DNA of 55,862 bases from a virus. A program made the translations under genes and the position numbers. The stretch spans positions 1-55,862 of IMG/VR virus record IMGVR_UViG_3300045988_011856. One strand, written 5' to 3'. Under the pieces are notes generated by a model. The model saw only the letters and a program-made list of their open reading frames with translations, had not been told where the DNA came from and did no database searches. Positions within the stretch are counted from its first letter, which is position 1, and each line of letters opens with the position of its first letter. Positions 5,304 through 55,862 of this stretch are shown in pieces.

Positions 5304-5493
5304 TCCGCATCCCTCCTATGTCTATATTTTTGCATAAAAAAATACGGTCATTCCGCAACAAATCCGCAGAAAAACCGCAATAAAAAAAGACGCTCAATGC
5401 GTCCAAACTTCTATAGTAATCATATTCAATTAACTTTTAGCACTTGTACAAGAAACTCCTTTCTCTAGTAAAATCAAGGCTTCCGAGCCTTTT

Positions 5494-5523
5494 TTGATTA
5501 CCTTTTGATTACTTTTTGATTAC
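5494..5523 (+). repeat. Three direct TTGATTAC repeats (candidate integrase arm-type sites, P arm)
   Basis: TTGATTAC at 5494, 5505 and 5516, spaced 11 bp apart. Confidence 0.6.
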
Positions 5524-5575
5524 TCTCTTTCCCCTAATCTATAGAAAACCTTGATTTTATGCGGTTTTCCGAAAG

Positions 5576-5640
5576 CCAATAAGGGGATTCGAACCCTTGC
5601 ACAAAGCATCAACTTTTCAGTGTTTATGCGGCTTGTAGCG
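5576..5640 (-). other. attP core candidate: 3' fragment of a tRNA gene
   Basis: The minus strand reads ...CTGAAAAGTTGATGCTTTGTGCAAGGGTTCGAATCCCCTTATTGGC. It has a T-arm with the TTCGAAT loop and a 3' acceptor strand but no 5' half. It lies next to the integrase 3' end. Confidence 0.55.
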
Positions 5641-5648
5641 TTTTTACT

Positions 5649-5687
5649 TTGATTACTTTTGATTACTTTTTTCAAAATAGTAATCAA
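5649..5687 (+). repeat. Two direct and one inverted TTGATTAC repeat (candidate arm-type sites, P' arm)
   Basis: TTGATTAC at 5649 and 5659. GTAATCAA at 5680. Confidence 0.6.
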
Positions 5688-5691
5688 ACGA

Positions 5692-6909
5692 CTAACTTGT
5701 TCGTGCTTTGAAGTCTGGTATACTACTTAAAATATCTGACTTTTTCTCGATAGATCTGCGGTTTCTGTGGTAATGTTCCTCTGTAGTTCCTAGGCTTGCG
5801 TGCCCCATCTGACCAAGGATCAACCGCTCGTCAATATTGTTGTCAAGAAGGATGGTTCCGTATGTCTTTCGGATCTTATGTGGAGACTTTCGATAGATTC
5901 CTAACTTATCGCACAATCTCTGTAATCGCATTCTTACACAATTCGCATTCAAGCGCTCTCCATTTTCTTTAATGAACACAAATTCTTCAAATGGATTCGT
6001 TTTTCTGATCCTATCACACAACCACTCGTAGTCCTTTGGGATGATAATTGTTCTTGCCCCAGCTCTCGTCTTTGGGAAATCCTTTATCGCAACCGTATAT
6101 TTTGCATCGTCCTCTCCACGATACCTTGTTTCGGTTCGCCGAACCTTGACCGTATTACCGTCAAAATCATCATGTTTTAGGCACACAACCTCTCCGATTC
6201 TCATTCCGGTCACGAACATTAGAAGTATTGCTATGTTTGATAAATCAAGGTTGCATTCCAAATATTTAATCATAATATCAGTTTCATTCTCGTCAAAAAC
6301 CTCTTCGTAATCTTCCTTGATCGTTCGTTTGAAATCGGAATCAGATGTATCAAGCTCCTCAAACAATTCTTCAACATTAAAATCAATCAACTTCCGCTTT
6401 TTGGCTCGTTTCAGAAACCCTTTGGTTATCCCTTTTAGTCCGGAAAACGCCTTTGCCGTCAAGTTAAACTTCGGAATCTGTTCTTCTAGGAAATCTCCCC
6501 ATTCATCTTCCGATATTGATTTTATGTGCCTTTTACCCATTTGTTTAAAGTGCCTTTGATAAAAGTTGCGATTCCTTTGGTGCGTTGCATTTCCAATCTT
6601 GTTCAGTGCCAACCGCCTGTCGTTCCACTCTTCAAACACTTCATCAATGGTTGGATTTTCTTCTTGAATCTGTAAATAATCGATAACCTCATTTTCAATA
6701 TCGACCCTATCTTTTTTCTTAAGTAGCTTTCTCCCTTTCTCCTTGCATGGAATATAGGTTCTCCAATACCCATCTTTCCCTTCCCATATATCATATGGGT
6801 GTTTCTTTAGTATCTTTTCTCTTTTGTTCATTTCAACTTGTTCTTGCACAAGTGCTATGTCGAGAATACCACTATCAACGGCATATTTCAACAGTTCTTT
6901 TTCATCCAA
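5692..6909 (-). CDS. int: tyrosine recombinase / phage integrase
   Basis: C-terminal catalytic signature: RIGEV..., HKIRKT, GHASLGTTEEHYHRN (R...HxxR...H...Y). Confidence 0.9.
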   Translation of the reverse strand: MDEKELLKYAVDSGILDIALVQEQVEMNKREKILKKHPYDIWEGKDGYWRTYIPCKEKGRKLLKKKDRVDIENEVIDYLQIQEENPTIDEVFEEWNDRRLALNKIGNATHQRNRNFYQRHFKQMGKRHIKSISEDEWGDFLEEQIPKFNLTAKAFSGLKGITKGFLKRAKKRKLIDFNVEELFEELDTSDSDFKRTIKEDYEEVFDENETDIMIKYLECNLDLSNIAILLMFVTGMRIGEVVCLKHDDFDGNTVKVRRTETRYRGEDDAKYTVAIKDFPKTRAGARTIIIPKDYEWLCDRIRKTNPFEEFVFIKENGERLNANCVRMRLQRLCDKLGIYRKSPHKIRKTYGTILLDNNIDERLILGQMGHASLGTTEEHYHRNRRSIEKKSDILSSIPDFKARTS

Positions 6910-7115
6910 TCAAATACCCCCGTTCTTTCTATTTTATCCTTTATATCTCTCACTCTGTACTCTATCGTTCTTAGTGATAGATTTTCTTTTGTGGATATTT
7001 GCTTTTGTGAAAAACCACGGCAGAGAAGAGAGAAAATCCTCTCCTCCTCTTCCGTGAAATTGGCATTTTCTTTAATGTATTCAAGTTCTGGCTTAATGAA
7101 TTTTGTAAATTTCAT
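6888..7115 (-). CDS. LuxR/GerE-type (sigma-70 region 4-like) HTH protein
   Basis: FTEEEERIFSLLCRGFSQKQISTKENLSLRTIEYRVRDIKDKI matches the LuxR-type HTH pattern. Overlaps the int start by 22 nt. Confidence 0.6.
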   Translation of the reverse strand: MKFTKFIKPELEYIKENANFTEEEERIFSLLCRGFSQKQISTKENLSLRTIEYRVRDIKDKIERTGVFDWMKKNC

Positions 7116-7199: not shown

Positions 7200-7919
7200 C
7201 TATTGCTGACTCCATATTTCCTTATCAAGAATATATTGTCTGATAAATCTATCTGCGTACTGTGGGTGTATCATTGACCTTGCTGTTTTTTTATCTATAC
7301 CCAAGGGGTTTTTATTTGTAATATATTGTATTGGCGGCATACTTTCTACTTGTTCCAACGGTTCAAAAACAAGATTGTTTTTAGGATTTAATCCAATAAA
7401 CCAATACTGAGTGGGCTTCTTGTAATAATCCCCATTCTGTGTCCTATCCCTGTCAATTACACTTGGCTTCAAGCACCAGAAGTTTGTAAGGTAATGTAAT
7501 CCACTTGTATTCAATGGATTTTCAATTACAATTTGCAAATGACCTCGCTGACAAATTATCACTAATTTATTCAGCTTTTCATAAAACAAATCAAGTTCCT
7601 TATGCCGTTTCATTGCCAATTCACATTTTTGCTCAATAGTGTAATTCCTGTACTGATAAGCCGTGCAAGCCAGATGCCTCAATCACTGGTCTGAAAAATA
7701 AGTGCAAGGGAAAAATGCAAATATCAAATCATCAGGGCTTATCTTATCAAACAAACTCGGCTCACCTTGATACCCCCTATCAATTTCTTCGAAAAGGTCA
7801 GTAACATAGTCGGTTTCGTTAAATTCATTCTGAATATCATAGTCGTAGGCTTCAATTCCATACTTCTTGAAAGCGTTCTTGAATGTTCCTGACTGTTCAA
7901 ATAAACAATGTACTTTCAT
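7200..7919 (-). pseudogene. C5-cytosine DNA methyltransferase-like gene interrupted by one in-frame TGA (7683-7685)
   Basis: The 78-aa ORF (LFEQSGTF motif I-like, FFPCTYFS motif IV) and the 160-aa ORF (IVIENP motif VI) are in the same frame, separated only by TGA. Confidence 0.6.
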
Positions 7920-8593
7920 ACTGTATCTCCTATAAAATCACTTAATCTCATTTGTGCCATTTCGGTATCTAACCTCTGTTTTGACACCTTGTAATAGTAT
8001 TCGTCAAGCTCAAACCCGACAAATTTATGATTAGTGTTATAGCAAGCTATCAAGCTACTCGCACTGCCTACATGAGTATCAAGTATAATGTCATTAGGCT
8101 TTGCATATCTGCTTAATAACCATTCATATAGTGCAATGGGCTTCTGCGTTGGATGTATGCGATTTTCTTTACGCTTCATGTTTTGCTGAAGCATTCCAGC
8201 CCACCTATATTTAATTTGCCTTACTGCAGTACTGAACGAAGTCCATGCAAGCTCACAATCAGCAAAATCGTTATCTCCATTATCTTTATCCCAAACAATC
8301 CAACAACTACTATCAAACGGCATTTTGCTGATAAAATGATTTGCGCCCCATATAATTTGATTTTTTGAAACTCTAAAAAGTTCATCAAAGTATTTTTCGC
8401 TTGGTGGCTTTAAATCCATTCCACTAAAAGCCTTATAATTCTTTGCTCTCGCTAGTTTACCTCTTGTATGGTTTTTATCCCCATTTTCTCCAATTCCATA
8501 TGGTGGGTCTACAATCGCAAGGTCAAAATATTTGTCGGGAAATTCTTTCATCCCCTGCATACAATCCATGTTGTAATATCCAAAATCTAACAT
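7916..8593 (-). CDS. DNA N6-adenine/N4-cytosine methyltransferase (beta class)
   Basis: DPPY motif (IVDPPYGIG) precedes HPTQKP...DTHVGSASS. Confidence 0.85.
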   Translation of the reverse strand: MLDFGYYNMDCMQGMKEFPDKYFDLAIVDPPYGIGENGDKNHTRGKLARAKNYKAFSGMDLKPPSEKYFDELFRVSKNQIIWGANHFISKMPFDSSCWIVWDKDNGDNDFADCELAWTSFSTAVRQIKYRWAGMLQQNMKRKENRIHPTQKPIALYEWLLSRYAKPNDIILDTHVGSASSLIACYNTNHKFVGFELDEYYYKVSKQRLDTEMAQMRLSDFIGDTV

Positions 8594-8604
8594 TTTGCGC
8601 TCCT

Positions 8605-9447
8605 TTATATAAAATCACTTATATCCATTTGATTATCCTTTTCAAATACAAGCATTTCATTCTTTGCACGCTCGTAAAAGTTTCTGTCAATCTCGAATCC
8701 GTATGCACTTCTGCCAAGTTCTGCGGCGGCTCTTAGCGTGCTACCGCTACCGCAACAAGGGTCAATAACAACATCTCCCTCGTCTGTAAAAATCTCAATC
8801 AGCTTTTTAAGGACTGCTACGGGCTTTTGTGCCGGATGAATTTTCGGTATATCTTTTCCGTCTTTCTCCCAAGTAAACCAATTGAAAATCATGTGTCCTG
8901 TACCTCTGATATTCTTTCCGTTTTCATCAATTTGCAAGCCGTTTCTGAATTTCTGCAACTTATTTCGGTACAGTACGAGTGCATATTCCGTAGCACCAAC
9001 GATGCGCATATTCGCTTTAAGTACCTGTGGACTGTAATTTTTACAGAATACAAGCGGTATGTAATTAACAAATCCGTGTTTCTTCGCCGCCGCAATCAAT
9101 GTTGACAACTGCTCAAATGCGCAAAACACAATCATGCAAGGGCTATTACTACTTCTGCCCCTTGCGATAGGCTTTGTATCTTCTTTTTTCAACATCTTTG
9201 AACAGAAATGAAAATATTCATACAGATTGAAATTGAAATCCGAATTGAAGGCCGCCTTTTTCGCAAGTTTGCTCTCACCATTCTTGTTATCTCCACCGTT
9301 ATACCACATAGGGTTACTGCCATAGAAGTTGTTTCCGACATTATAAGGAACATCAGCTATAATCAACTGTGCTGGCGGTATTGCATATTTCTTGTAATTC
9401 TGCATAGAATCACGATAAATCTCACATTTAATCTTCTTTTTATACAT
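8605..9447 (-). CDS. DNA N6/N4 methyltransferase (beta class), second copy of different sequence
   Basis: ADVPYN motif precedes HPAQKP...IDPCCGSGST. Confidence 0.85.
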   Translation of the reverse strand: MYKKKIKCEIYRDSMQNYKKYAIPPAQLIIADVPYNVGNNFYGSNPMWYNGGDNKNGESKLAKKAAFNSDFNFNLYEYFHFCSKMLKKEDTKPIARGRSSNSPCMIVFCAFEQLSTLIAAAKKHGFVNYIPLVFCKNYSPQVLKANMRIVGATEYALVLYRNKLQKFRNGLQIDENGKNIRGTGHMIFNWFTWEKDGKDIPKIHPAQKPVAVLKKLIEIFTDEGDVVIDPCCGSGSTLRAAAELGRSAYGFEIDRNFYERAKNEMLVFEKDNQMDISDFI

Positions 9448-11603: not shown

Positions 11604-11988
11604 CCTCACTTTCTGCCAGCTTTGCCATTTTCCAATCGGTTGTATTACTGCAATCCGCGCTCCATGATGTTGCGCCATTTCCCCATGCATACACCGTGTT
11701 GTCCTCGTATTTTGCAAAATATCTCTTTCTCCACATTCTTTCTTCGCTATCTCTTACCAAAATCGGCGTATCGACTGCAACCTTGTTCCAATCAACCGGA
11801 GTCTCAACGTATTCACTGTTCGCCCACTCCTGCTTCGATACAATGCAATCATCGCGGTCGTAAAAAGCGCAACTCGTGCAACCTTGCACATCTGAGCAAG
11901 CACATATTTTTCCGCCCATCAAAGCAAATGTTTCATCTTTTAACGCAACGTCAACAATCTCTTTCGCGTATTTTTCTCTATTTAACAT
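11590..11988 (-). CDS. hypothetical protein
   Basis: Intact ORF. Confidence 0.65.
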   Translation of the reverse strand: MLNREKYAKEIVDVALKDETFALMGGKICACSDVQGCTSCAFYDRDDCIVSKQEWANSEYVETPVDWNKVAVDTPILVRDSEERMWRKRYFAKYEDNTVYAWGNGATSWSADCSNTTDWKMAKLAESEDADA

Positions 11989-12230
11989 TACACATCCTCC
12001 TTATCTAACCCAAATTCATCAATTATTAAGTTTATTCTTTGACCAATTCTTACAACCTCTTGTAGCAATATCCATATGTCTTGATCGTCTGGATATTTTT
12101 CGTACAACTTTTCCGTAAGCGTAAATATATTCCCTCTGCTACAAACCTTATATTCATTAGGCTTTGTGCAATTATAGTCCACATTGTATTTGCAATTTTT
12201 AAAATTACAAGTCGGCAAATCTACCCTCAT
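11988..12230 (-). CDS. hypothetical protein
   Basis: Trimmed to MRVDLPT after GGAGG. Confidence 0.6.
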   Translation of the reverse strand: MRVDLPTCNFKNCKYNVDYNCTKPNEYKVCSRGNIFTLTEKLYEKYPDDQDIWILLQEVVRIGQRINLIIDEFGLDKEDV

Positions 12231-12232
12231 AT

Positions 12233-12832
12233 TTACGCCTCCAAATCGCATACAAACTTAATCTCATCCGCCAAACTCTCAGCAATCATCGGTATGGTTA
12301 ATTGAAACTGCTTGTAATTCGCAAGCGTATCGATATAATCAACAAACTTATCCGAAAACTCCTGCAACTGTCCTCGCGTGAACTTGAACATCTTTTTCAG
12401 TGCCGTAAGAGTCAGTGCAAGATAGTTAAACATCGATGCACTAGAAAGCCTGTATGCTTCACGTTCAACACAATGTCCTTTCCATGCATACAACCGCATC
12501 AATTGACTTTGCGGCACTCTATTCACGATCGATGTAACATCCAAATCGTATTTTTCCTTAAGCATGAATGCCAAGGACGTTCCTTTCATATTCGAATCGT
12601 CAACAGATGCTTCGGAATATGCATTTACGGTTTGTTCAAGCCTTGCCATACGCTTCTGACCAAATCCAAACTTGTCATGCAGGATAATGTAACCAATCAC
12701 AAGATAATCCTTGTATGACTTGAATACGACCCTCTGTGTATTCCTCGTCTCAAAATCATTCCGACCGATGATAGTTGTATCTTTCTTCGTGAAAAATGTC
12801 GGTTTCTTTTTTCTCCTAAGTGCATTACTCAT
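12233..12832 (-). CDS. hypothetical protein
   Basis: Trimmed to MSNALRRKKK after GGAGAGGAGG. Confidence 0.65.
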   Translation of the reverse strand: MSNALRRKKKPTFFTKKDTTIIGRNDFETRNTQRVVFKSYKDYLVIGYIILHDKFGFGQKRMARLEQTVNAYSEASVDDSNMKGTSLAFMLKEKYDLDVTSIVNRVPQSQLMRLYAWKGHCVEREAYRLSSASMFNYLALTLTALKKMFKFTRGQLQEFSDKFVDYIDTLANYKQFQLTIPMIAESLADEIKFVCDLEA

Positions 12833-13083
12833 ACGATAACCTCCTCTCCGTGTCTGCCTTTGATGCAAGTGTTCCAAAATATACATCCAGGATCACACGT
12901 TTTGTTCTTCTCTCCGTAACTGCATTTTCTTCCGCTACCATAATCTGTAGGTGGAGTTTTAAATTTCTTATATGCTTTCGGATCTCTGTGCTCCGGTTTG
13001 GAATCTTGATAGTTCCGCATATCTTCAGATAATTGAATCCGAGATATCTCAAACCTCTTTTCCATACTACTTCTGTGCTTCAT
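12829..13083 (-). CDS. hypothetical protein
   Basis: ORF coupled to the downstream gene by an ATGA overlap. A second ORF in another frame (12825..13052) was rejected. Confidence 0.5.
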   Translation of the reverse strand: MKHRSSMEKRFEISRIQLSEDMRNYQDSKPEHRDPKAYKKFKTPPTDYGSGRKCSYGEKNKTCDPGCIFWNTCIKGRHGEEVIV

Positions 13084-14649: not shown

Positions 14650-15423
14650 CTATTCCCTCTTTTCTGCAAACTTAAGCCAATAATCACAATCGCTTTTCAA
14701 CCACTCGGCATACTTTGGAATGAATTTATACTCTGCATCATCTACGTGCTTTTTGCGGTAATCATCCAAATACATTGCCGTTGCGGTATAAATCAGTCTA
14801 GCAATATCTGGTCTGTTCTCTTCGATTACTCCAAGCAACTTATCCATCCAAGTTGTCTTGGCATTGGTATATGCGGTCTTTTTAGGATAGATGGCAAATG
14901 TCTGCTCAAATGCACTTTCAAAATCGAAAGGGAGAGGGACTTCTTCTTTCTTCTCTTTCTCTTCTCTTTTATCTATCTCTTTCTCTATCTCTGTGTCACT
15001 CATTGTCACACACTTGTCACAAAGTGACGTTTCCTTGTTTTCATTAAGAAGTTTTTCACGTTCTCTATGCTCCCTCATCCTGCTTGCACTCTCACATTCA
15101 CTTCCGGTCATGCTTTCACACTCAGTCAAAAGATATTCTTCTTCACTCAGCATTGTTAAGTGACCAATGGACATAAGAAAGCGAACTGTCACTCTAACAT
15201 TTTCTTCATCTTCGTCGATGTCGCTTGCTAATTCTTTGACAAAATCATCCTCGATGCCATCAAAGTAAAGCCTTCCATTATCTTTGAGAGACGATAAAAG
15301 CATCTTCAAATAAATGATTGTATATGTATCTCCTCCGGCAAGTTTGCGAAGCTTCTTGATAGGTTTTCCCCTAAAGAAATCAGTATTAAGTTTCAACCAA
15401 TAATATCTCTTACTCTTCGCCAT
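14650..15423 (-). CDS. phage replisome organizer / DnaD-like replication initiation protein
   Basis: The N-terminus MAKSKRYYWLKLNTDFFRGKPIKKL...GDTYTIIYLKMLL is the replisome-organizer N-domain signature. Iterons lie inside the gene. Confidence 0.8.
   Translation of the reverse strand: MAKSKRYYWLKLNTDFFRGKPIKKLRKLAGGDTYTIIYLKMLLSSLKDNGRLYFDGIEDDFVKELASDIDEDEENVRVTVRFLMSIGHLTMLSEEEYLLTECESMTGSECESASRMREHREREKLLNENKETSLCDKCVTMSDTEIEKEIDKREEKEKKEEVPLPFDFESAFEQTFAIYPKKTAYTNAKTTWMDKLLGVIEENRPDIARLIYTATAMYLDDYRKKHVDDAEYKFIPKYAEWLKSDCDYWLKFAEKRE
14977..15028. repeat. TGTCAC iterons (candidate ori) inside the replisome organizer gene
   Basis: TGTCAC at 14994, 15004 and 15015, plus an inverted GTGAC at 15024. 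Preceded by a CT-rich tract. Confidence 0.45.
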
Positions 15424-16024
15424 CTTTCGAACCCTCTTTCAACAATTCTTTAAATTTCTCAAACTGTTTCTCGGAAACCTTGTTGCCCTGCTTATCATCC
15501 CTAATCGCCACGACAAGGTGTTTTTCGATGATATGCGATAATTCCCTAGCCATATTGATTCTGCCTTGTTTAAGACCGTCTCTGTAGCCTTTGGTTGGGC
15601 GATAATCGGCAATCTGTGTTTTCCCCTCCCCTTGGCTACCGCTTGTTTTATTGCGAAGCTGATAACCTTTGTCTGCACAATACTTAATCCATCGTTGTTC
15701 TTCCTCGTTAAGTCTGTCTACAGGACAATGTTGAATGCAAACTCCCCATCCATGCGGATTATCCTCTGAATGCAGTCCGTGAGACTTCAAGCTAAGGTCT
15801 ATGTGCTGATACCCAGAAAGGTGTTGCGACAATCTGGTTAAAATACGCTTAGCCTGCCCAACATAGGCATATCTAAACCCGTTTTCGTCCTGTCTTGTCA
15901 AAATATATATTCCGCTTGATTCATCAAGCATTGGATTCAATTCAAGCCATTTCTTCTTGTTCTTGGCTTCAATCGCCTTTGCCTGCCGGAATTTCTGATA
16001 GTCCAACGCGATCCCTCCTTTCAA
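15410..16024 (-). CDS. GIY-YIG nuclease (free-standing homing-endonuclease-like)
   Basis: SGIYILT...YAYVGQAKRILTRLSQH...LRNKTSG. The start could instead be Met at 15931. Confidence 0.7.
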   Translation of the reverse strand: MKGGIALDYQKFRQAKAIEAKNKKKWLELNPMLDESSGIYILTRQDENGFRYAYVGQAKRILTRLSQHLSGYQHIDLSLKSHGLHSEDNPHGWGVCIQHCPVDRLNEEEQRWIKYCADKGYQLRNKTSGSQGEGKTQIADYRPTKGYRDGLKQGRINMARELSHIIEKHLVVAIRDDKQGNKVSEKQFEKFKELLKEGSKDGEE

Positions 16025-17496: not shown

Positions 17497-18051
17497 TTAA
17501 TTTCCAAACAAATCCTCCAGCCTGTTCCTGACCTTTCCCTTGACATATTCTTCTTTATTGGCAACTTGCATTATATTTCTTTGACAAACTCCGGTAAAAT
17601 CGCTGGCAATCTGCGCGTTTGCATATTCTGCAATAAAATGACCGTCCAGATCATATTGTTGAATATGTCTCGGTCTTTCAAACATATTATAATTTCTTAA
17701 CCGATCGACAATTTGAGGGTGTTCAATTTCTGTTTTTGCTCTATGTGCTTTCGGGTGCAGTATTTGTAAGTTGGTAACAATATTGTTTTGCTTATTTCCA
17801 TCGATATGGTCAACGTGATACCCTTTTGGTATTTCGCCTATAAAATGTTCTGCTACCAGCACGTGGATTCTTGTACACCTTCTCAGTTTTACAGCTTTGT
17901 TTGTTAATACAACCGATAAATATCCTCCCTTTTGGTTTGTGTTCGAGAGAATATACCCATCTTTGTACTTTTTGTAACTTTTCAGTCTTCCAAAATTTGA
18001 AATTTGATATACACCCTCAAACCCATTTACCCATTTCCATTCTTCATTCAA
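17497..18051 (-). CDS. HNH homing endonuclease (NUMOD4 plus HNH_3 type)
   Basis: [21 protein letters not shown] (NUMOD4). [18 protein letters not shown] (HNH). Confidence 0.85.
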
Positions 18052-26120: not shown

Positions 26121-26303
26121 CTAATTAAGAAGAGAATCAACAGTTACATTTAAAACCTTTGCAACGGCGTTAAGGTTTTCTGCACTAGGGCAAGATTCGT
26201 TCCATTTGCGGATTGTAGCATTGCTAAGTCCTGCTTCTTTCTCGACTCTCATAATGTTTGTGCCCTTTTCATTGCAAAGTTGCTTGATTTTGTCGTAAAG
26301 CAA
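26121..26303 (-). CDS. Cro-like XRE-family HTH regulator
   Basis: GTNIMRVEKEAGLSNATIRKWNE HTH. GGGAGG RBS. Divergent from the cI-like gene. Confidence 0.8.
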   Translation of the reverse strand: MLYDKIKQLCNEKGTNIMRVEKEAGLSNATIRKWNESCPSAENLNAVAKVLNVTVDSLLN

Positions 26304-26330
26304 ATTACATACCTCCCTTTCTATAGACTT

Positions 26331-26344
26331 AGAAAATATTCTAT
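26331..26344. promoter_or_regulatory. Operator O1, TAGAAAATATTCTA
   Basis: Palindrome TAGAA-N4-TTCTA that abuts the -35 of the rightward promoter. Confidence 0.6.
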
Positions 26345-26373
26345 TGACATAATGTAGATAATATTCTAAAATA
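26345..26373 (+). promoter_or_regulatory. Rightward promoter (toward the cI-like gene)
   Basis: TTGACA-17 nt-TAAAAT. Confidence 0.6.
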
Positions 26374-26417
26374 AATTTGCCAAATGAATTTAAGAACAGT
26401 CTCTATTTATATTTCGT

Positions 26418-26431
26418 AGAACATTTTCTAG
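26418..26431. promoter_or_regulatory. Operator O2, TAGAACATTTTCTA
   Basis: Same palindrome. Lies just downstream of the leftward -10. Confidence 0.6.
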
Positions 26432-26443
26432 TTGATAAAGCCA

Positions 26444-26472
26444 TTATATAGAAGATGTTCTAGTTTGTCAAC
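26444..26472 (-). promoter_or_regulatory. Leftward promoter (toward cro-like and early genes)
   Basis: The minus strand reads TTGACA-17 nt-TATAAT (perfect consensus). Operator O3 occupies the spacer. Confidence 0.7.
26450..26463. promoter_or_regulatory. Operator O3, TAGAAGATGTTCTA
   Basis: Same palindrome, 32 bp centre-to-centre from O2 and from O4. Confidence 0.6.
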
Positions 26473-26481
26473 CCATTTTAT

Positions 26482-26495
26482 AGAAATTGTTCTAG
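26482..26495. promoter_or_regulatory. Operator O4, TAGAAATTGTTCTA
   Basis: Same palindrome. Confidence 0.6.
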
Positions 26496-26512
26496 TGAAA
26501 TGGAGGAAAATT

Positions 26513-26848
26513 ATGACACCGCTAGAAAGAATTAGGTTATTGTGCAAAAAAGCAGGGATTAGCATGACTGCCCTAGAAGAAAAGCTGGAATTTAGCAACG
26601 GCTCTATATCAAAACCGAAGGATATTCCATCATCGAGAATAATAAAAATTGCTGAATATTTTGGAGTGAGTGCAGATTGGATATTGACAGGCGAAGAAAA
26701 CTCCGCATTTTCGGATGAATCAATCCATCTTGCATCGAAAATTGTTTTAGACGCGGAATTAAGCAGTAAGATTGAAAAACTTCTATCTCTTTCGGACAAG
26801 AAGAAAAAGCACGTTTTTGAATTGATCGATTTATTGAGTGAGGAATAG
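26513..26848 (+). CDS. CI-like XRE-family HTH repressor (no S24 peptidase domain seen)
   Basis: Trimmed to MTPLERIRLLCKKAGISMTALEEKLEFSNGSIS after GGAGGAAA. Confidence 0.8.
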   Translation: MTPLERIRLLCKKAGISMTALEEKLEFSNGSISKPKDIPSSRIIKIAEYFGVSADWILTGEENSAFSDESIHLASKIVLDAELSSKIEKLLSLSDKKKKHVFELIDLLSEE

Positions 26849-27546: not shown

Positions 27547-27696
27547 TTACTCATCAGCTTTTGTAACTGTTCCATCCTCATTCAAAACATATCCTTCGCT
27601 CACAAGTTCTTCCTTGACCTTATCCTGCCACAGTTTAGGCACGTCAGTCCATTTTTTCAGACCGTTCTTTACCCGATATACATAAAAGTTTACCAT
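27547..27696 (-). CDS. XkdX-family small phage protein (49 aa)
   Basis: MVNFYVYRVKNGLKKWTDVPKLWQDKVKEELVSEGY... fits the XkdX pattern. GGAGG upstream. Below the track cutoff. Confidence 0.6.
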   Translation of the reverse strand: MVNFYVYRVKNGLKKWTDVPKLWQDKVKEELVSEGYVLNEDGTVTKADE

Positions 27697-27697
27697 A

Positions 27698-28081
27698 TTA
27701 TTTTACCTCCATTTCTGCCGCCATTGTTGCTAATTCTTCAATTGCTCCAGCGTTTACTTCATACCCTGCCTTCAACTCATCGATGGCTTTCTCAATCTCT
27801 GTTTTCGTACGAAGCATTACTGTAACGGTATATGTACCATCTTCCTTACCATCATCCCCGAAATTTGGTAAATATGTGAATCCACTATTCTTAAGGTTCT
27901 CATACTCACCGGAAATCTCTCCATTGTGGGTAAAAGTTACTTTTGAAATGTTCTCAGCGTTGAACTTGTCTGTGATGGTCTTGACTTCATCGAAGTTTTT
28001 TGCCTGGATCTGAATATTACCGAGACTCGCACCATCTGCGATCTCGAACTCAGTTTTGTCTTTCAAAATAATTTTGTCCAT
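27698..28081 (-). CDS. hypothetical tail-associated protein (XkdW position)
   Basis: Intact ORF between the tail fibre and XkdX-like genes. Confidence 0.6.
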   Translation of the reverse strand: MDKIILKDKTEFEIADGASLGNIQIQAKNFDEVKTITDKFNAENISKVTFTHNGEISGEYENLKNSGFTYLPNFGDDGKEDGTYTVTVMLRTKTEIEKAIDELKAGYEVNAGAIEELATMAAEMEVK

Positions 28082-28122
28082 GTTTTTTATTCCTTTCTAT
28101 ATATGTTTTTACGAGTTACTAA

Positions 28123-28464
28123 ACTAATTTAAACGGCAGTTTAAAAGAAATTGAGTTAACGAGGTATAATATCGAAGGTATTGACACAAGCAGCGTGCAG
28201 TGTTTTGTAAAAAATAATATAGCATACGTCAATATTGGCGTATATTATAGAACGAAAGAGGCAATAACTGGATGGACGAAAATTGTTAGTAATCTTCCAA
28301 TTCCTGCATATACCAAGCGAACGTTCATACATTATTCGCAAAATGATGACGGTGGCCTTATTGCAGGTATTTTGCTAAATAGCAATGGAGAATTGATGAT
28401 TGAAGGAGGTAGACTTTCATACACTAAGTTTATCTGCTCACTAATATCGTATCCTATAAAATGA
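28123..28464 (+). CDS. start-less alternative tail-fibre C-terminal cassette (silent orientation)
   Basis: The frame is open from 28123 and has no ATG. It begins TNLNGSLKEIE... and shares the LNGSL-encoding 19-bp repeat, in phase, with the tail-fibre gene on the other strand. Confidence 0.6.
   Translation, partial: TNLNGSLKEIELTRYNIEGIDTSSVQCFVKNNIAYVNIGVYYRTKEAITGWTKIVSNLPIPAYTKRTFIHYSQNDDGGLIAGILLNSNGELMIEGGRLSYTKFICSLISYPIK
28127..28145. repeat. Inverted repeat, left copy (ATTTAAACGGCAGTTTAAA)
   Basis: Exact reverse complement of 28958-28976. Confidence 0.95.
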
Positions 28465-28470
28465 TATTAC

Positions 28471-29553
28471 CTATATATTGTTTGCAAGATCAATGCTGCA
28501 CACAATTACTTCGCCATCAGAGATTTCAGGGACTAAATAAGCCTCAACATGTTCAGCTGATTGTATTCCTTCATTAAATGGAATAAATGATAATATTTCA
28601 GTTGCGTTTATAAATGCATTAGAATACACATCAAGAAATATTGTATTACCACTCCTTACAATCCGAACCCTTTTTAATACAGTTGTATTGTACCCGATAA
28701 CAGATATTCTTGCAGAATCATTGTATATTAAATAGAAATCTATTTTATGAAAACAACCTAGTGCATTTGAAAATGTTTGGCGAATTAGTGTTTCTATCAA
28801 TATGTAAGTAGAACCCTTTGCTATCGTGTCTACTTTACAGGTTATCTTTGCAAATCTGTACCAGCCAGCGCCTTCGTTTCCAATAGATTTATCTGAATAT
28901 AATCGAATTGCTCCTGATGGATTCAATGCACTTATATCGTTTTTAGTAGCAACATTATTTAAACTGCCGTTTAAATCACTTATCTGCTTTGCAAGTGATC
29001 CATCAATATTCGGGTTCGCCTGCCGCGCATCAAGTGCGAAGCCTTCCGCTGTGGTGATCTGATTATTCGCTACGTTTGCCGCAGGAAATGCTCCATCGAT
29101 GGCATCTTTTAAGGTATCTGCCAATTTGATTACATTGTTGACCTGGTCCATCGTGAGCGTTGTACCATCAATGTTGACTTGAAGTTTTCCATCCTCTCCA
29201 ATCGAAAGACCCTGTCCTGTTTCAACGCTCGGTTTGATTTCTGTGCCGTTGTATGTAAGTGAGCCATCTTTTGATTCTCCAAGTTTCGCAGCTACATCGC
29301 CGTCAATGCCATCAAGTTTCTTCTTATCTTCTTTCGGCATCAAACCATCTTCGGTATCTGTTGCCACATTAACGACACTGCCAGAAATCGATTTCGACCA
29401 ATATTCTGTATTTGTCGTTGCCGTTCCTGCCGAAACGTCTTTCTTCGCAAAATAAAGCGTATTATTGTGTGTTACTGCATCCAATCTCTTATATGCAGTT
29501 TGTGCATTCCACTCGCCCTTAGGTACGATTGCTACTCTACCTGCTACTGCCAT
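28471..29553 (-). CDS. tail fibre / receptor-binding protein
   Basis: The N-terminus GEWNAQTAYKRLDAVTHNNTLYFAKKD is typical of fibre proteins. Position follows the other tail-tip genes. Confidence 0.75.
   Translation of the reverse strand: MAVAGRVAIVPKGEWNAQTAYKRLDAVTHNNTLYFAKKDVSAGTATTNTEYWSKSISGSVVNVATDTEDGLMPKEDKKKLDGIDGDVAAKLGESKDGSLTYNGTEIKPSVETGQGLSIGEDGKLQVNIDGTTLTMDQVNNVIKLADTLKDAIDGAFPAANVANNQITTAEGFALDARQANPNIDGSLAKQISDLNGSLNNVATKNDISALNPSGAIRLYSDKSIGNEGAGWYRFAKITCKVDTIAKGSTYILIETLIRQTFSNALGCFHKIDFYLIYNDSARISVIGYNTTVLKRVRIVRSGNTIFLDVYSNAFINATEILSFIPFNEGIQSAEHVEAYLVPEISDGEVIVCSIDLANNI
28958..28976. repeat. Inverted repeat, right copy, inside the tail-fibre gene
   Basis: TTTAAACTGCCGTTTAAAT on the plus strand. 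Confidence 0.95.
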
Positions 29554-29554
29554 A

Positions 29555-30313
29555 TTAAGCCACCTCCCAATTCAAATTTCCATCATCATCAACTGTAAAA
29601 CTATCAGCCGTGTTATCCGTGTAGATTAACTCACCATCGTCATTCACATCAAAAGTGGCAAGGTTCAGTTTCTTGTCAAGATTATCACTGTACCCCTTGG
29701 CTTTTTCTGCATATTCATTTGCAGAATTTGCATAACCTTTTGATAAATTTGCCTGCGACTCCGAATCCTTTGCGGACTTGTCAGCCGAAACTGCTGACGA
29801 TGCTGCTTTCGCTGATTCAACCTTAATGTCTGCTAAGTAGTCCGGTCTCAATTTATCCTCGGTAATCGAACCGTTCTTAATTGAGAATGAATAGGTCTTA
29901 TTGACACCCTCTCCGCTTACCGATACCGCGATTTCGTCCGAATCCTCAAATGTAAGAATCGGAATCATTGCACCGATATTCGCCGTAAACTTCGTGCCAT
30001 CATCGGTTGTCATGGTTAGGATACCATCATCGGATAAAGCGAAAGATACCGGAATCTTTTCAATATTAAGGTCGAACAGAATCTTTTCTCCGCTCAACTT
30101 CGTGATAGTGATTATTCCGGTATTTTCATCGATCTCCCAATCCTTAATCAATGAATTTGCGGTAATCGCATCAAACTTGGTTTCATCCATAGCAACGACA
30201 CGATCATCAATCGCATCTAATCCTGAATCCATTCTGTTAAGATTCGTTTCATTTACCGCCGTTTCTTCGCTAGGGAAGTTCTTCCAATTTATACGGCTAT
30301 AAATCTTCTGCAT
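29555..30313 (-). CDS. tail fibre / baseplate-associated protein
   Basis: N-terminus INWKNFPSEETAVNETNLNRMDSGLDAID is typical of Firmicute phage tail proteins. Confidence 0.65.
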   Translation of the reverse strand: MQKIYSRINWKNFPSEETAVNETNLNRMDSGLDAIDDRVVAMDETKFDAITANSLIKDWEIDENTGIITITKLSGEKILFDLNIEKIPVSFALSDDGILTMTTDDGTKFTANIGAMIPILTFEDSDEIAVSVSGEGVNKTYSFSIKNGSITEDKLRPDYLADIKVESAKAASSAVSADKSAKDSESQANLSKGYANSANEYAEKAKGYSDNLDKKLNLATFDVNDDGELIYTDNTADSFTVDDDGNLNWEVA

Positions 30314-30323
30314 AGGCTACCTC

Positions 30324-30548
30324 CTATTCCGCAGAATAAGCATCCACTGCATCTTCAAACTCCGCTCTGTCAGCCTTGAATATATCCTTGTTCGCCTTGT
30401 AAAGTTCCTCGTCCTGAATGGAATAATTTACATTGTGTTTTCCATCCGTTCCGATATTTGCATTAAAATAAGCAAATACTTTCTGTTTTCCATCAACCTC
30501 AACACTTGACATTCCACTGAAATTAACTGATTTTTGAACTGATAACAT
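30324..30548 (-). CDS. hypothetical protein
   Basis: Intact ORF. Confidence 0.55.
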   Translation of the reverse strand: MLSVQKSVNFSGMSSVEVDGKQKVFAYFNANIGTDGKHNVNYSIQDEELYKANKDIFKADRAEFEDAVDAYSAE

Positions 30549-50839: not shown

Positions 50840-50908
50840 ACCATCCATAAGTCTCCCATCGACCGGAACTATTGCAGTAGCACCCGACTAAGCGGAGATA
50901 AAGATAAA

Positions 50909-50991
50909 CGCAGATACAAGGACTCGAACCTTGACAGCATTTCTGCTGGATAGCTTAGCAAGCTACTGGAATACCATTATCCCATATCTGC
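50909..50991 (-). tRNA. tRNA-Ser (anticodon GCU), type II with long variable arm
   Basis: Acceptor GCAGATA/TATCTGC. Anticodon stem GTAGC/GCTAT with loop TTGCTAA. Variable arm CAGCA-GAAA-TGCTG. T-arm CAAGG-TTCGAGT-CCTTG. Confidence 0.85.
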
Positions 50992-51077
50992 AAATAATTT
51001 ATTGGCAGGACTTAGCAGCGCATTTTCTGTACCGCCCATTTAATCAAGCCTTGTCGCCTACTTGAACCAATAATTAG

Positions 51078-51149
51078 CTGGGATAGTGGGGATCGAACCC
51101 ACGGCATTCTGATTAACAGTCAGACGTTCTACCTCTGAACTATATCCCA
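51078..51149 (-). tRNA. tRNA-Asn (anticodon GUU)
   Basis: Full 72-nt cloverleaf. Anticodon arm TCTGA-CTGTTAA-TCAGA. T-arm GTGGG-TTCGATC-CCCAC. Confidence 0.9.
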
Positions 51150-51438
51150 ATAACCGCCGTTAAGCGGTTAGCAATATGTTTTACGTGCTATGCATTGCAC
51201 TATCTCGGGCACCGTGGGATAGATGCCCGAATCATAGTTGACTGCTATATGGATTGCACGTCTGCAAATTACGGAACGAATACCGCTCAACACCATATAG
51301 TCTTACATCAAAGACCTACCGGACGGTCTCGCACCGTCCTTAACAGAATCGTCCTAGTAGGCGGAGGACTCCGGATAGCATAAAAAGTAATGCCTACACA
51401 GAGTCAGAAACGTCCGTATGCAAACGATAACAGACGAA

Positions 51439-51510
51439 CTGGGTTAGCCGGACTCGAACCGGCAAATGCAGGAATCAAAATCCTGTGCCTTACCACTTGG
51501 CAATAGCCCA
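51439..51510 (-). tRNA. tRNA-Gln (anticodon UUG)
   Basis: 72 nt. Anticodon arm CAGGA-TTTTGAT-TCCTG. T-arm GCCGG-TTCGAGT-CCGGC. U1-A72. One C.A mismatch in the acceptor stem. Confidence 0.8.
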
Positions 51511-51754
51511 ATGTTTTTTCGTCCGCGAACATGATTCAAGCGCCAACGCCCAACTGCCAAGAATCATTGTCCGCGGACTTAAGCTATACCGGATGCTCTG
51601 ATTTCTCGCTCTGGTGCTCGGCGTCACTATCCAGATTGAGTAAATCTCCGGTGCTGTCCGGTTCCTTTGATTTTGTTATATGTATTCTTTCGACCACACT
51701 CAAAAATTGCGGCAGAAAGCAAATACCAAATATCGGATCATAAATTACCATGTA

Positions 51755-55607: not shown

Positions 55608-55829
55608 TTAATTATTTTTATATTCCATAATATCGCCCGGCTGACAATTTAGCAGTCTGCATAGATTACATATAACCTCACAAGTTACATTTTCATTTTT
55701 TGTCAGCTTTGCCACTGTATTAGAATGGATTCCGTTATTCTTTAACCACTGCTTATTGTATTCCTTTTTTTCTAAGACATTCCACAGCTTGGAAAAGTCA
55801 ATATATCCGTTTGCACCATAATTCGCCAT
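55608..55829 (-). CDS. XRE-family HTH regulator
   Basis: KNNGIHSNTVAKLTKNENVTCEVICNLCRLLNCQPGDIMEY. The 5' end is repeated at window positions 1-66. Confidence 0.8.
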   Translation of the reverse strand: MANYGANGYIDFSKLWNVLEKKEYNKQWLKNNGIHSNTVAKLTKNENVTCEVICNLCRLLNCQPGDIMEYKNN

Positions 55830-55862
55830 GCGTCACACCTCTTTTCTTTTTATATATGATAA
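55764..55862. repeat. Terminal direct repeat copy 2
   Basis: Identical to 1-99. Confidence 0.95.

Follow-up and report, generated by a model that had tools for sequence, protein, structure and literature searches.

A predicted tail-fibre inversion switch without a recombinase of its own in a complete genome of an uncultured phage

That phages can switch host range by inverting fibre genes was first learnt from Mu and P1. Programmed inversions in phage tail genes now form a recognised class (PMC9881135), and a version that uses a tyrosine recombinase, Rin, was described in 2018 in phages of Actinobacteria (Mavrich et al., PMC6109161). In the Rin shufflons of Bifidobacterium and Eggerthella lenta prophages, a tyrosine invertase rearranges the cassettes for the C-terminus of the receptor-binding protein through rix sites of 11 or 8 bp (PMC6109161, PMC8778435). 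The earlier report also describes a recombinase-less inversion locus, found in bifidoprophages integrated at tRNA-Met, which might be served in trans (PMC6109161). Here, a tail-fibre locus of this general kind is described from IMG/VR record IMGVR_UViG_3300045988_011856, positions 1-55,862; this whole stretch of 55,862 nt is called the window in the following. The locus is probably a recombinase-less member of the Rin-like family of tyrosine shufflons, in which an Xer-like invertase acting in trans would flip the cassette pair and also replace it. The evidence was obtained by comparing sequences, and concerns the anatomy and conservation of the site, inversions between genomes, the use of both cassettes, the association of a recombinase with the site, and the absence of that recombinase here.

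The original prediction, made on the window alone, had reported a perfect 19-bp inverted repeat, ATTTAAACGGCAGTTTAAA at 28127-28145 (+) with its reverse complement at 28958-28976, and this was confirmed. The top inverted repeat returned for the region by a repeat finder has arms of 24 nt at 92%, with 812 nt between them. When the motif was searched with up to 3 mismatches, only these two places were found in the 55.8 kb (chance expectation 0.07), each scoring on both strands because the site is nearly palindromic. The right copy lies, as described, inside the tail-fibre gene 28471..29553 (-), where it encodes (D)LNGSL(N), residues 193-199 of 360 amino acids (aa). The left copy encodes (N)LNGSL(K), in the same phase, in a plus-strand frame whose open stretch, 28123 to 28464, lies between an in-frame TAA (28120-28122) and the stop TGA (28465-28467). 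This silent frame had been said to have no ATG, which is correct for its head; one ATG is found at codon 92 of 113. A crossover between the two copies would swap the tips in frame, just as proposed, replacing 162 aa by 106 aa and giving a product of 304 aa. The suggested subdivision of the site into 7-bp arms and a 6-bp spacer is possible, and the same site may also be read as 8-bp arms (ATTTAAAC and GTTTAAAT) around GGCA. The features of the locus are:

28958-28976, minus strand: proximal recombination site, inside the fibre gene; it reads ATTTAAACGGCAGTTTAAA in the fibre sense, and its core, TTAAACGGCAGTTTAAA, is kept at this place in relatives.
28127-28145, plus strand: distal recombination site, the inverted copy, heading the silent cassette and outside any expressed gene.
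28146-28957, no strand: invertible segment, made of two convergent start-less C-terminal cassettes, 3 nt apart.
28471-28957, minus strand: cassette CA, which forms the currently expressed tip; 162 aa (fibre residues 199-360) and a stop.
28146-28467, plus strand: cassette CB, silent, which encodes the alternative tip; 106 aa and a stop, with no start of its own near the head.
28977-29553, minus strand: N-terminal part of the fibre that stays constant (residues 1-192); PHROG tail-fibre match over residues 5-53.

Relatives were defined as 80 viral loci encoding homologues of the fibre, most of them viewed only within 6 kb of the fibre gene. The N-terminal parts of their fibres are mostly 50-65% identical to that of the window. 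An inverted pair of TTAAACGGCAGTTTAAA, with up to 2 mismatches in each copy, is present in 56 of the 80 loci, and in 26 both copies are perfect. The proximal copy always closes the constant part, and the distal one follows after a further 500-900 bp, beyond the expressed gene; outside the 17-bp core, conservation drops. Since the conserved positions are synonymous in the proximal copy, and non-coding or silent in the distal one, the pattern points to selection acting on the DNA of the site itself. The silent cassettes of relatives are likewise start-less. The original prediction had allowed that the repeat might turn out not to be conserved, or that related phages might carry the plus-strand frame with its own start and without the repeat. 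The repeat is conserved, and in all five examined relatives with CB in silent position (L081, L082, L365, L366, L367) the cassette is either headed by the site or the contig stops before its head. In five loci (L012, L013, L014, L016 and L019, at about 6466-7001) the distal site is followed by an empty silent cassette, LNGSLN and then a stop; inversion would truncate the fibre there, and these loci may be decayed or ON/OFF switches.

That the C-terminus of the fibre is invertible had been proposed from one orientation of one genome; comparison of genomes supports it, as inversions are seen between genomes exactly at the sites, and both cassettes are found in expressed position. Between L007 and L063, 932 bp are inverted at 92% identity, exactly between the sites, with collinear flanks at 86% and 83%. 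Between L025 and L017, 745 bp are inverted at 96.5%, and between L023 and L063, 898 bp at 89%, while in L055 and L061 the cassettes are exactly swapped. A comparison of 65 two-site loci showed the segment shared in inverted orientation in 28 pairs, and in direct orientation in 102. The C-terminal cassettes fall into 27 families, 11 of which occur in both expressed and silent position. It is between genomes, then, that rearrangement breakpoints are seen to fall at the sites.

The two cassettes of the window follow the same pattern. The CA family is silent in L063, L065, L095 and L096; L083 and L084 express CB and have a CA-type cassette in silent position, and in L095 CB is likewise fused in frame. 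A query made of the constant end and CB retrieved about 21 clusters of fibres, 229-268 aa long, with CB fused in frame at LNGSL (full cover), the CB-fused fibres P0001 and P0002 being 95-96% identical to the query. About 17 further clusters are short open reading frames (ORFs), with CB in silent position. A metagenome scan with CB gave only 3 loci, L364, where it lies beside the recombinase described below, and two in which CB is silent. The ratio of nonsynonymous to synonymous substitution rates (dN/dS) of CB was 0.7 and 1.2 at 2-3% divergence, which is too little divergence to be informative, and 0.41 in the comparison with L081.

The whole segment of the window also recurs in other genomes, as follows:

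L095: segment 99.6% identical, inverted; flanks 75-84% (BLAST) or 68-72% (global alignment).
L367: segment 100% identical (842/842 bp), same orientation; flanks 62-72%.
L096: segment 100% identical, both cassettes silent; unrelated flanks, with a recombinase gene 130 bp away.
L364: segment 95% identical, adjoining the end of a recombinase gene.

When L095 and L367 are compared with each other, the segment is 99.6% identical and inverted, and the flanks are only 77-82% identical. L281 is near-isogenic to the window (flanks 93-98%, fibre N-terminus 99%), yet its segment is wholly different: homology between the two stops at 28963 and resumes at 28140, in both cases inside the sites, and the inner half-sites of L281 are decayed. 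The segment of L281 is 98.8% identical to the second inverton of L084, a recombinase-bearing locus whose first inverton is the window segment, flipped, at 93%. Because the segment recurs in diverged contexts, and homology breaks off inside the sites, it appears to be both invertible and horizontally mobile, with its breakpoints at the sites.

The constant part of the window fibre carries a 38-aa insertion at residues ~58-100 (about 29250-29380), which brings it to 198 aa, versus about 160 aa in most relatives. The insertion-bearing form is common, at 92-99% identity, to fibres with at least 6 different tips (P0163, P0176, P0214, P0238, P0239, P0243). CA and CB were also found joined to quite different fibre N-termini (P0005, P0151, P0152), one of them collagen-like with GDxGD repeats, another starting with MTKTKYYDL and having LSGSL at the junction, so that the cassette pool would appear to serve several fibre families.

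A candidate for the enzyme is found in other phages that have the same site. In L084, a gene for a tyrosine recombinase of 327 aa (11893-12876) lies some 600 bp past the inverton, and homologues adjoin the same core site in L066, L085-87 and L096 (at 18-902 in L096). In 11 further viral loci the recombinase, 52-83% identical, accompanies the same core, mostly with four sites in the arrangement [+ -] gene [+ -]. The loci in which it is present are L084, L066, L085-87, L096, L097/98, L104-108, L111/112 and L117/118. The protein matches PF00589 and SAM-like domains, and the catalytic R, K, HxxR, H and Y residues are present. It reaches 217 bits against the NCBIfam XerA model, the cut-off of which is 220, and matches XerC-like and XerD chains of the PDB; by these matches it is classed as Xer-like. 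The stop codon of this predicted invertase (GCA TAA) was observed inside the outer arm of the third site (ATAAACGGCAG) at 12875 in L084, 1518 in L085 and 6981 in L086/L087; recombination at the third site would thus fall at the very end of the enzyme's own gene.

Between L097 and L098, whose flanks are 98-100% identical, and between L105 and L117, the segment has moved, inverted, from one of the two invertons to the other. In the four-site loci, as in L281, the outer half-sites keep their position and the inner halves travel with the cassette, a behaviour which places the predicted strand exchange within AAACGGCAGTTTA. The site had been taken to be of the tyrosine-recombinase type rather than a hix or gix site; this view gains from the finding that the same site repeatedly adjoins an Xer-like tyrosine recombinase elsewhere. 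The phage-borne Xer-like tyrosine recombinase, of about 327 aa, is most likely the cognate enzyme.

The window does not encode this enzyme. It has a 100-nt terminal direct repeat (1-100 = 55763-55862) and is a complete, circularly closed phage genome with a unit of 55,763 bp; since the circle is closed, no gene is hidden beyond the ends of the window. L090 (55,882 bp, k=119) implies an identical unit length, 55,763 bp. A tblastn search of the complete window for a homologue of the cognate recombinase hit only the catalytic motif of the integrase Int (E = 0.016), so that the claim that a cognate invertase is lacking holds for the entire circular genome. It had also been stated that no serine invertase is encoded: no PF00239 was found when all ORFs of 150 aa or more, and numerous shorter ones, were scanned with Pfam or PHROG profiles, and tblastn of the window with approximate Hin and Gin sequences gave nothing below E = 0.09. 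A 674-aa protein with the PHROG label 'recombinase' was considered and rejected, being actually an SbcC/Rad50-like ATPase. Among the 80 fibre loci, only L066 carries the recombinase within 6 kb.

The two C-termini had been expected to be different, and their predicted structures agree with this, both being confident, beta-rich models of unlike domains; the N-terminal part was modelled poorly by AlphaFold2. The CB model is all-beta, with block means of about 88-95 for the predicted local distance difference test (pLDDT), and in the PDB its best Foldseek matches are to receptor-binding proteins from Listeria phage PSA and the lactococcal phages p2 and TP901-1 (E 3e-3 to 1e-2, probability 1.0). 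CA is modelled as a larger beta domain (pLDDT mostly >90, block means 85-97), with weak Foldseek matches to C-terminal domains of tailspikes or fibres of Acinetobacter and Klebsiella phages. Weak matches of this kind are what would be expected for two different receptor-binding heads.

According to the mechanism proposed, the locus would switch the receptor-binding tip of a siphovirus tail fibre between two cassettes by site-specific inversion. The constant 5' part ends with ...DLNGSL, encoded by a site of ~17-20 bp, TTAAACGGCAGTTTAAA, which has inverted arms of 7-8 bp and an asymmetric centre; the inverted second site, 812 bp downstream, heads the start-less alternative 3' cassette. Strand exchange in AAACGGCAGTTTA, presumably catalysed by the Xer-like recombinase, would invert the segment, fusing CB, with its p2/TP901-1-like head, in frame and silencing CA, with a presumed effect on host range. 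In this phage, the flipped junctions would read ...AGATAAGTGATTTAAACGGCAGTTTAAAAGAAATTGAGTTAAC... and ...GAGTTACTAAACTAATTTAAACGGCAGTTTAAATAATGTTGCTACT.... Phages encoding the recombinase usually have four sites, arranged [+ -] recombinase [+ -], which makes a four-cassette shufflon. The window phage, because its complete genome is without the recombinase gene, would be an 'orphan' member, able to flip only if the invertase acts in trans, the most plausible source being a related phage or prophage in the same cell. The same sites would let whole segments swap between phage genomes, in either orientation.

A wider interpretation may be put forward tentatively, namely that the locus belongs to a shared cassette-exchange system, in which the enzyme acts in trans and segments move between diverged phages by double site-specific recombination, in either orientation. 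A minority of phages might then encode the Xer-like invertase, and many others might keep only the two sites. It is conceivable, if somewhat short of probable, that such a system is an integron-like pool of fibre tips rather than a private phase switch.

Several points weigh against a working switch served in trans by another phage. Among the recombinase-less phages, no flipped pair with flanks more than 95% identical was found, so that the differences in orientation could come from acquisition of cassettes and not from inversion in place. An exact look-up of the predicted 304-aa flipped product in a collection of 15 billion proteins showed it to be absent. The window fibre, identical to that of 'virus sp. 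ctQ5V6', is on eight public contigs, with ERZ27262664, ERZ28664375, SRR16124305 and SRR33880552 among their sources; having been selected for the exact fibre, these show one orientation by construction, and they give no direct sign of flipping. The pairing of recombinase and site rests on adjacency, and some relatives could encode the recombinase elsewhere, beyond the 6 kb viewed. Co-residence of a donor phage or prophage in the host of the window phage is a step that we infer. A scan of 185,579 representative genomes for the 17-mer gave 104 hits, a chance level, none of them in a fibre or recombinase context; with chance hits only, the host was not identified by that scan.

The switch might accordingly be frozen in this phage: the segment would have arrived recently from a recombinase-encoding phage and would never invert, the two orientations being separate acquisitions. 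The single orientation on record and the absence of the exact flipped product are in keeping with this, and the 100% identity of the segment to copies elsewhere suggests a very recent arrival; decayed inner half-sites, as in L281, and the empty silent cassettes of L012-L016, where LNGSLN is followed by a stop, point the same way. The outer half-sites, however, which belong to the phage's own flanks, are invariant at synonymous and non-coding positions across diverged recombinase-less relatives, which argues for continuing selection on recombination. Moreover, the acquisition itself needs a recombinase in trans on this genome, and the same condition permits inversion. A frozen switch is regarded as unlikely, though worth keeping in mind.

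If the segment does invert with an enzyme supplied in trans, as preferred here, the enzyme might be a global invertase of the host chromosome, similar to RecV or Mpi, instead of that of another phage. Trans-acting global invertases are already an established category (cited in PMC6109161), and a recombinase lies within 6 kb of the fibre in just 1 of the 80 relatives, as such a source would allow. A host enzyme is nevertheless improbable, given that every copy of the cognate recombinase family that was found adjoins fibre cassettes, and that the 17-mer, searched in the 185,579 representative genomes, gave chance hits only, with no sign of a host regulon.

The only recombinase of the genome is its integrase, which might be bifunctional and also invert the fibre segment. 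The features concerned are:

5692-6909, minus strand: integrase Int, PF00589, the only recombinase found in the genome.
5493-5688, no strand: attP-like region of Int, with six TTTGATTAC repeats around a fragment resembling a tRNA 3' end.

The motif TTTGATTAC occurs in 8 copies in the genome, versus 0.92 expected, and 6 of them are in 5493-5688, which is a probable attP with arm-type sites, right next to int; its tRNA-like core, near 5560-5640, could identify the host attB. Int is 97-100% conserved in at least 37 viral contigs, at least 9 of them among the 80 fibre contigs (best 80 of 163 matches), and co-occurrence alone would leave it possible as the driver; the same figure, a 97-100% identical copy in 9 of 80 fibre contigs among the best 80 of 163 matches, can also be held against it. 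A single TTTGATTAC is found inside the fibre gene at 29125-29133, 150 bp from the proximal site, a position that might seem to link Int with the inverton; one stray copy is the chance expectation (0.92). Nothing resembling TTAAACGGCAGTTTAAA is found in the attP with its six TTTGATTAC arms and tRNA-like core, the genome contains only the two copies of the inverton site, and Int resembles the invertase family at the catalytic motif only. Int has an attP architecture of its own, and other phages pair the inverton site with an unrelated Xer-like enzyme dedicated to it; for these reasons Int is unlikely to drive the inverton, and a bifunctional Int is considered very improbable. The original prediction had left the choice between Int and a host enzyme of the Xer or Rci kind. 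Its tyrosine, Xer-like part stands; Int is unlikely, a host Xer is not the best candidate, and the best candidate would be the phage-borne Xer-like invertase of other phages that share the same cassettes.

The explanation given least credit is that there is no site-specific recombination at all, the LNGSL stretch being simply a linker where fibre modules pass from phage to phage by homologous recombination: in 17 locus pairs the segments are far more alike than the flanks, as modular exchange predicts, yet homologous exchange needs no inverted second copy, while here a conserved one heads a start-less in-phase cassette downstream, the breakpoints lie within 13 bp, and a dedicated tyrosine recombinase adjoins the sites in some members.

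Next to the inverton lies one more conserved feature:

27547-28081, minus strand: a pair of short conserved genes (127 aa; 49 aa) that immediately follow the distal site.

The protein libraries name no function for either of them, and we take them to resemble XkdW and XkdX. They were considered as hidden recombinases and rejected, as they have no recombinase matches and the pair also follows the inverton in relatives that bear the recombinase; it is found in this position in relatives with and without that gene. The 252-aa product of the gene just upstream of the fibre (29555-30313) has a match (2e-27) to phrog_17196, which bears the label 'kinase'; since the gene lies among tail genes, a structural role is suggested. 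Divergent genes for helix-turn-helix (HTH) proteins, 26121..26303 (-) and 26432..26848 (+), have between them palindromic TAGAAnATnTTCTA motifs (26330-26368) and a tandem repeat of 32 nt in two copies (26417-26480); the motifs in 26330-26480, which lie immediately downstream of the tail module, look like putative operators of an immunity switch.

Elsewhere in the window there are a pair of neighbouring genes for N6/N4 DNA methylases of 225 and 280 aa (7916-9447) and three phage tRNA genes, Ser-GCT, Asn-GTT and Gln-TTG (50908-51511). The replication and recombination module, which contains DnaB, RecT, SSB and an SbcC-like protein, includes a weak GIY-YIG match (15410-16024) and a gene resembling HNH/NUMOD4 homing endonucleases (17497-18051). 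The G+C content of the phage group is 40%, and the nearest TerL is that of Dulem virus 39 (79%). A search of GenBank phage DNA with window positions 27600-30400 gave no match. With the fibre N-terminus as query, a search of GenBank phage proteins gave four weak partial matches and no relative of the window fibre; by this search, none of the cultured phages has this fibre. A literature search found the sequence of the site in no paper.

What is new in these results is that a large group of uncultured gut phages uses a different and well-defined 17-bp site, and that most members near the window, this complete genome included, are without an invertase of their own, the switch having to rely on another element. 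The segment, in addition, behaves as a unit of horizontal transfer: it is found at 100% identity next to flanks that are unrelated or only 62-72% identical. Should supply in trans and exchange between genomes prove real, host range would depend on which phages share a cell, and a host predicted from a single assembled orientation could not be relied on. The short site and the small recombinase would also be a candidate cassette-exchange tool for engineering the receptor-binding proteins of phages.

Compared with the described systems, the locus shares with the Mu G segment and Gin, P1 C and Cin, p15B Min and e14 Pin the plan of a constant part (Sc) and two convergent variable ends on one invertible segment, and the purpose, which is to switch host range. 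The switches of that Din family use a serine enzyme, whereas here no PF00239 is found and the enzyme associated with the site in relatives is a tyrosine recombinase. Din systems rely on sites of 26 bp, a crossover of 2 bp and a Fis-dependent enhancer, the window site being of 17-20 bp; the Din invertases can complement each other in trans, which is a precedent for supply in trans. The locus is thus one that works like the G segment, but outside the Din family of serine invertases.

With the R64 shufflon of IncI plasmids and its Rci, the locus has in common a tyrosine recombinase and sites, of ~19 bp in R64, that head alternative C-termini, there of the adhesin PilV; the four-site relatives further share multiple inversions among four segments. 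R64 differs in that its cassettes belong to a pilus gene on a plasmid, that Rci is encoded next to them, and that the site sequence is unrelated; the likeness is drawn from the layout of the system and the class of the enzyme. Of the features of tyrosine shufflons, the window has start-less cassettes, an in-phase inverted site at the head of each, and breakpoints at the sites, these last as seen between genomes; it has two sites and two cassettes only, and no invertase in cis.

The closest resemblance is to Rin. Rin is likewise phage-borne, and joins a constant N-terminal gene part to one of several C-terminal cassettes that lack a start, with a short crossover site at the head of each; the predicted invertase is of the tyrosine family and distinct from the phage integrase, the cassettes resemble the TP901-1 receptor-binding head, and the evidence came largely from comparing genome arrangements. 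The window, unlike Rin, has one segment with two convergent cassettes and no rin-like gene; its site, TTAAACGGCAGTTTAAA, is nearly palindromic, and it belongs to another phage group, with 40% G+C. The likeness is drawn from organisation and enzyme family. Identical segments shared between diverged phages, as seen here, are not reported for Rin in the available text of PMC6109161 and PMC8778435. With the orphan locus of the bifidoprophages, and with Mpi and RecV, the window shares an invertible coding segment with no invertase in cis and a proposed supply in trans. As an orphan inverton would, it has no recombinase in cis, and a recombinase with the same site is encoded in other phages. It differs from these systems in that a candidate family for the enzyme acting in trans has been identified, beside the same site and a 100% identical segment.

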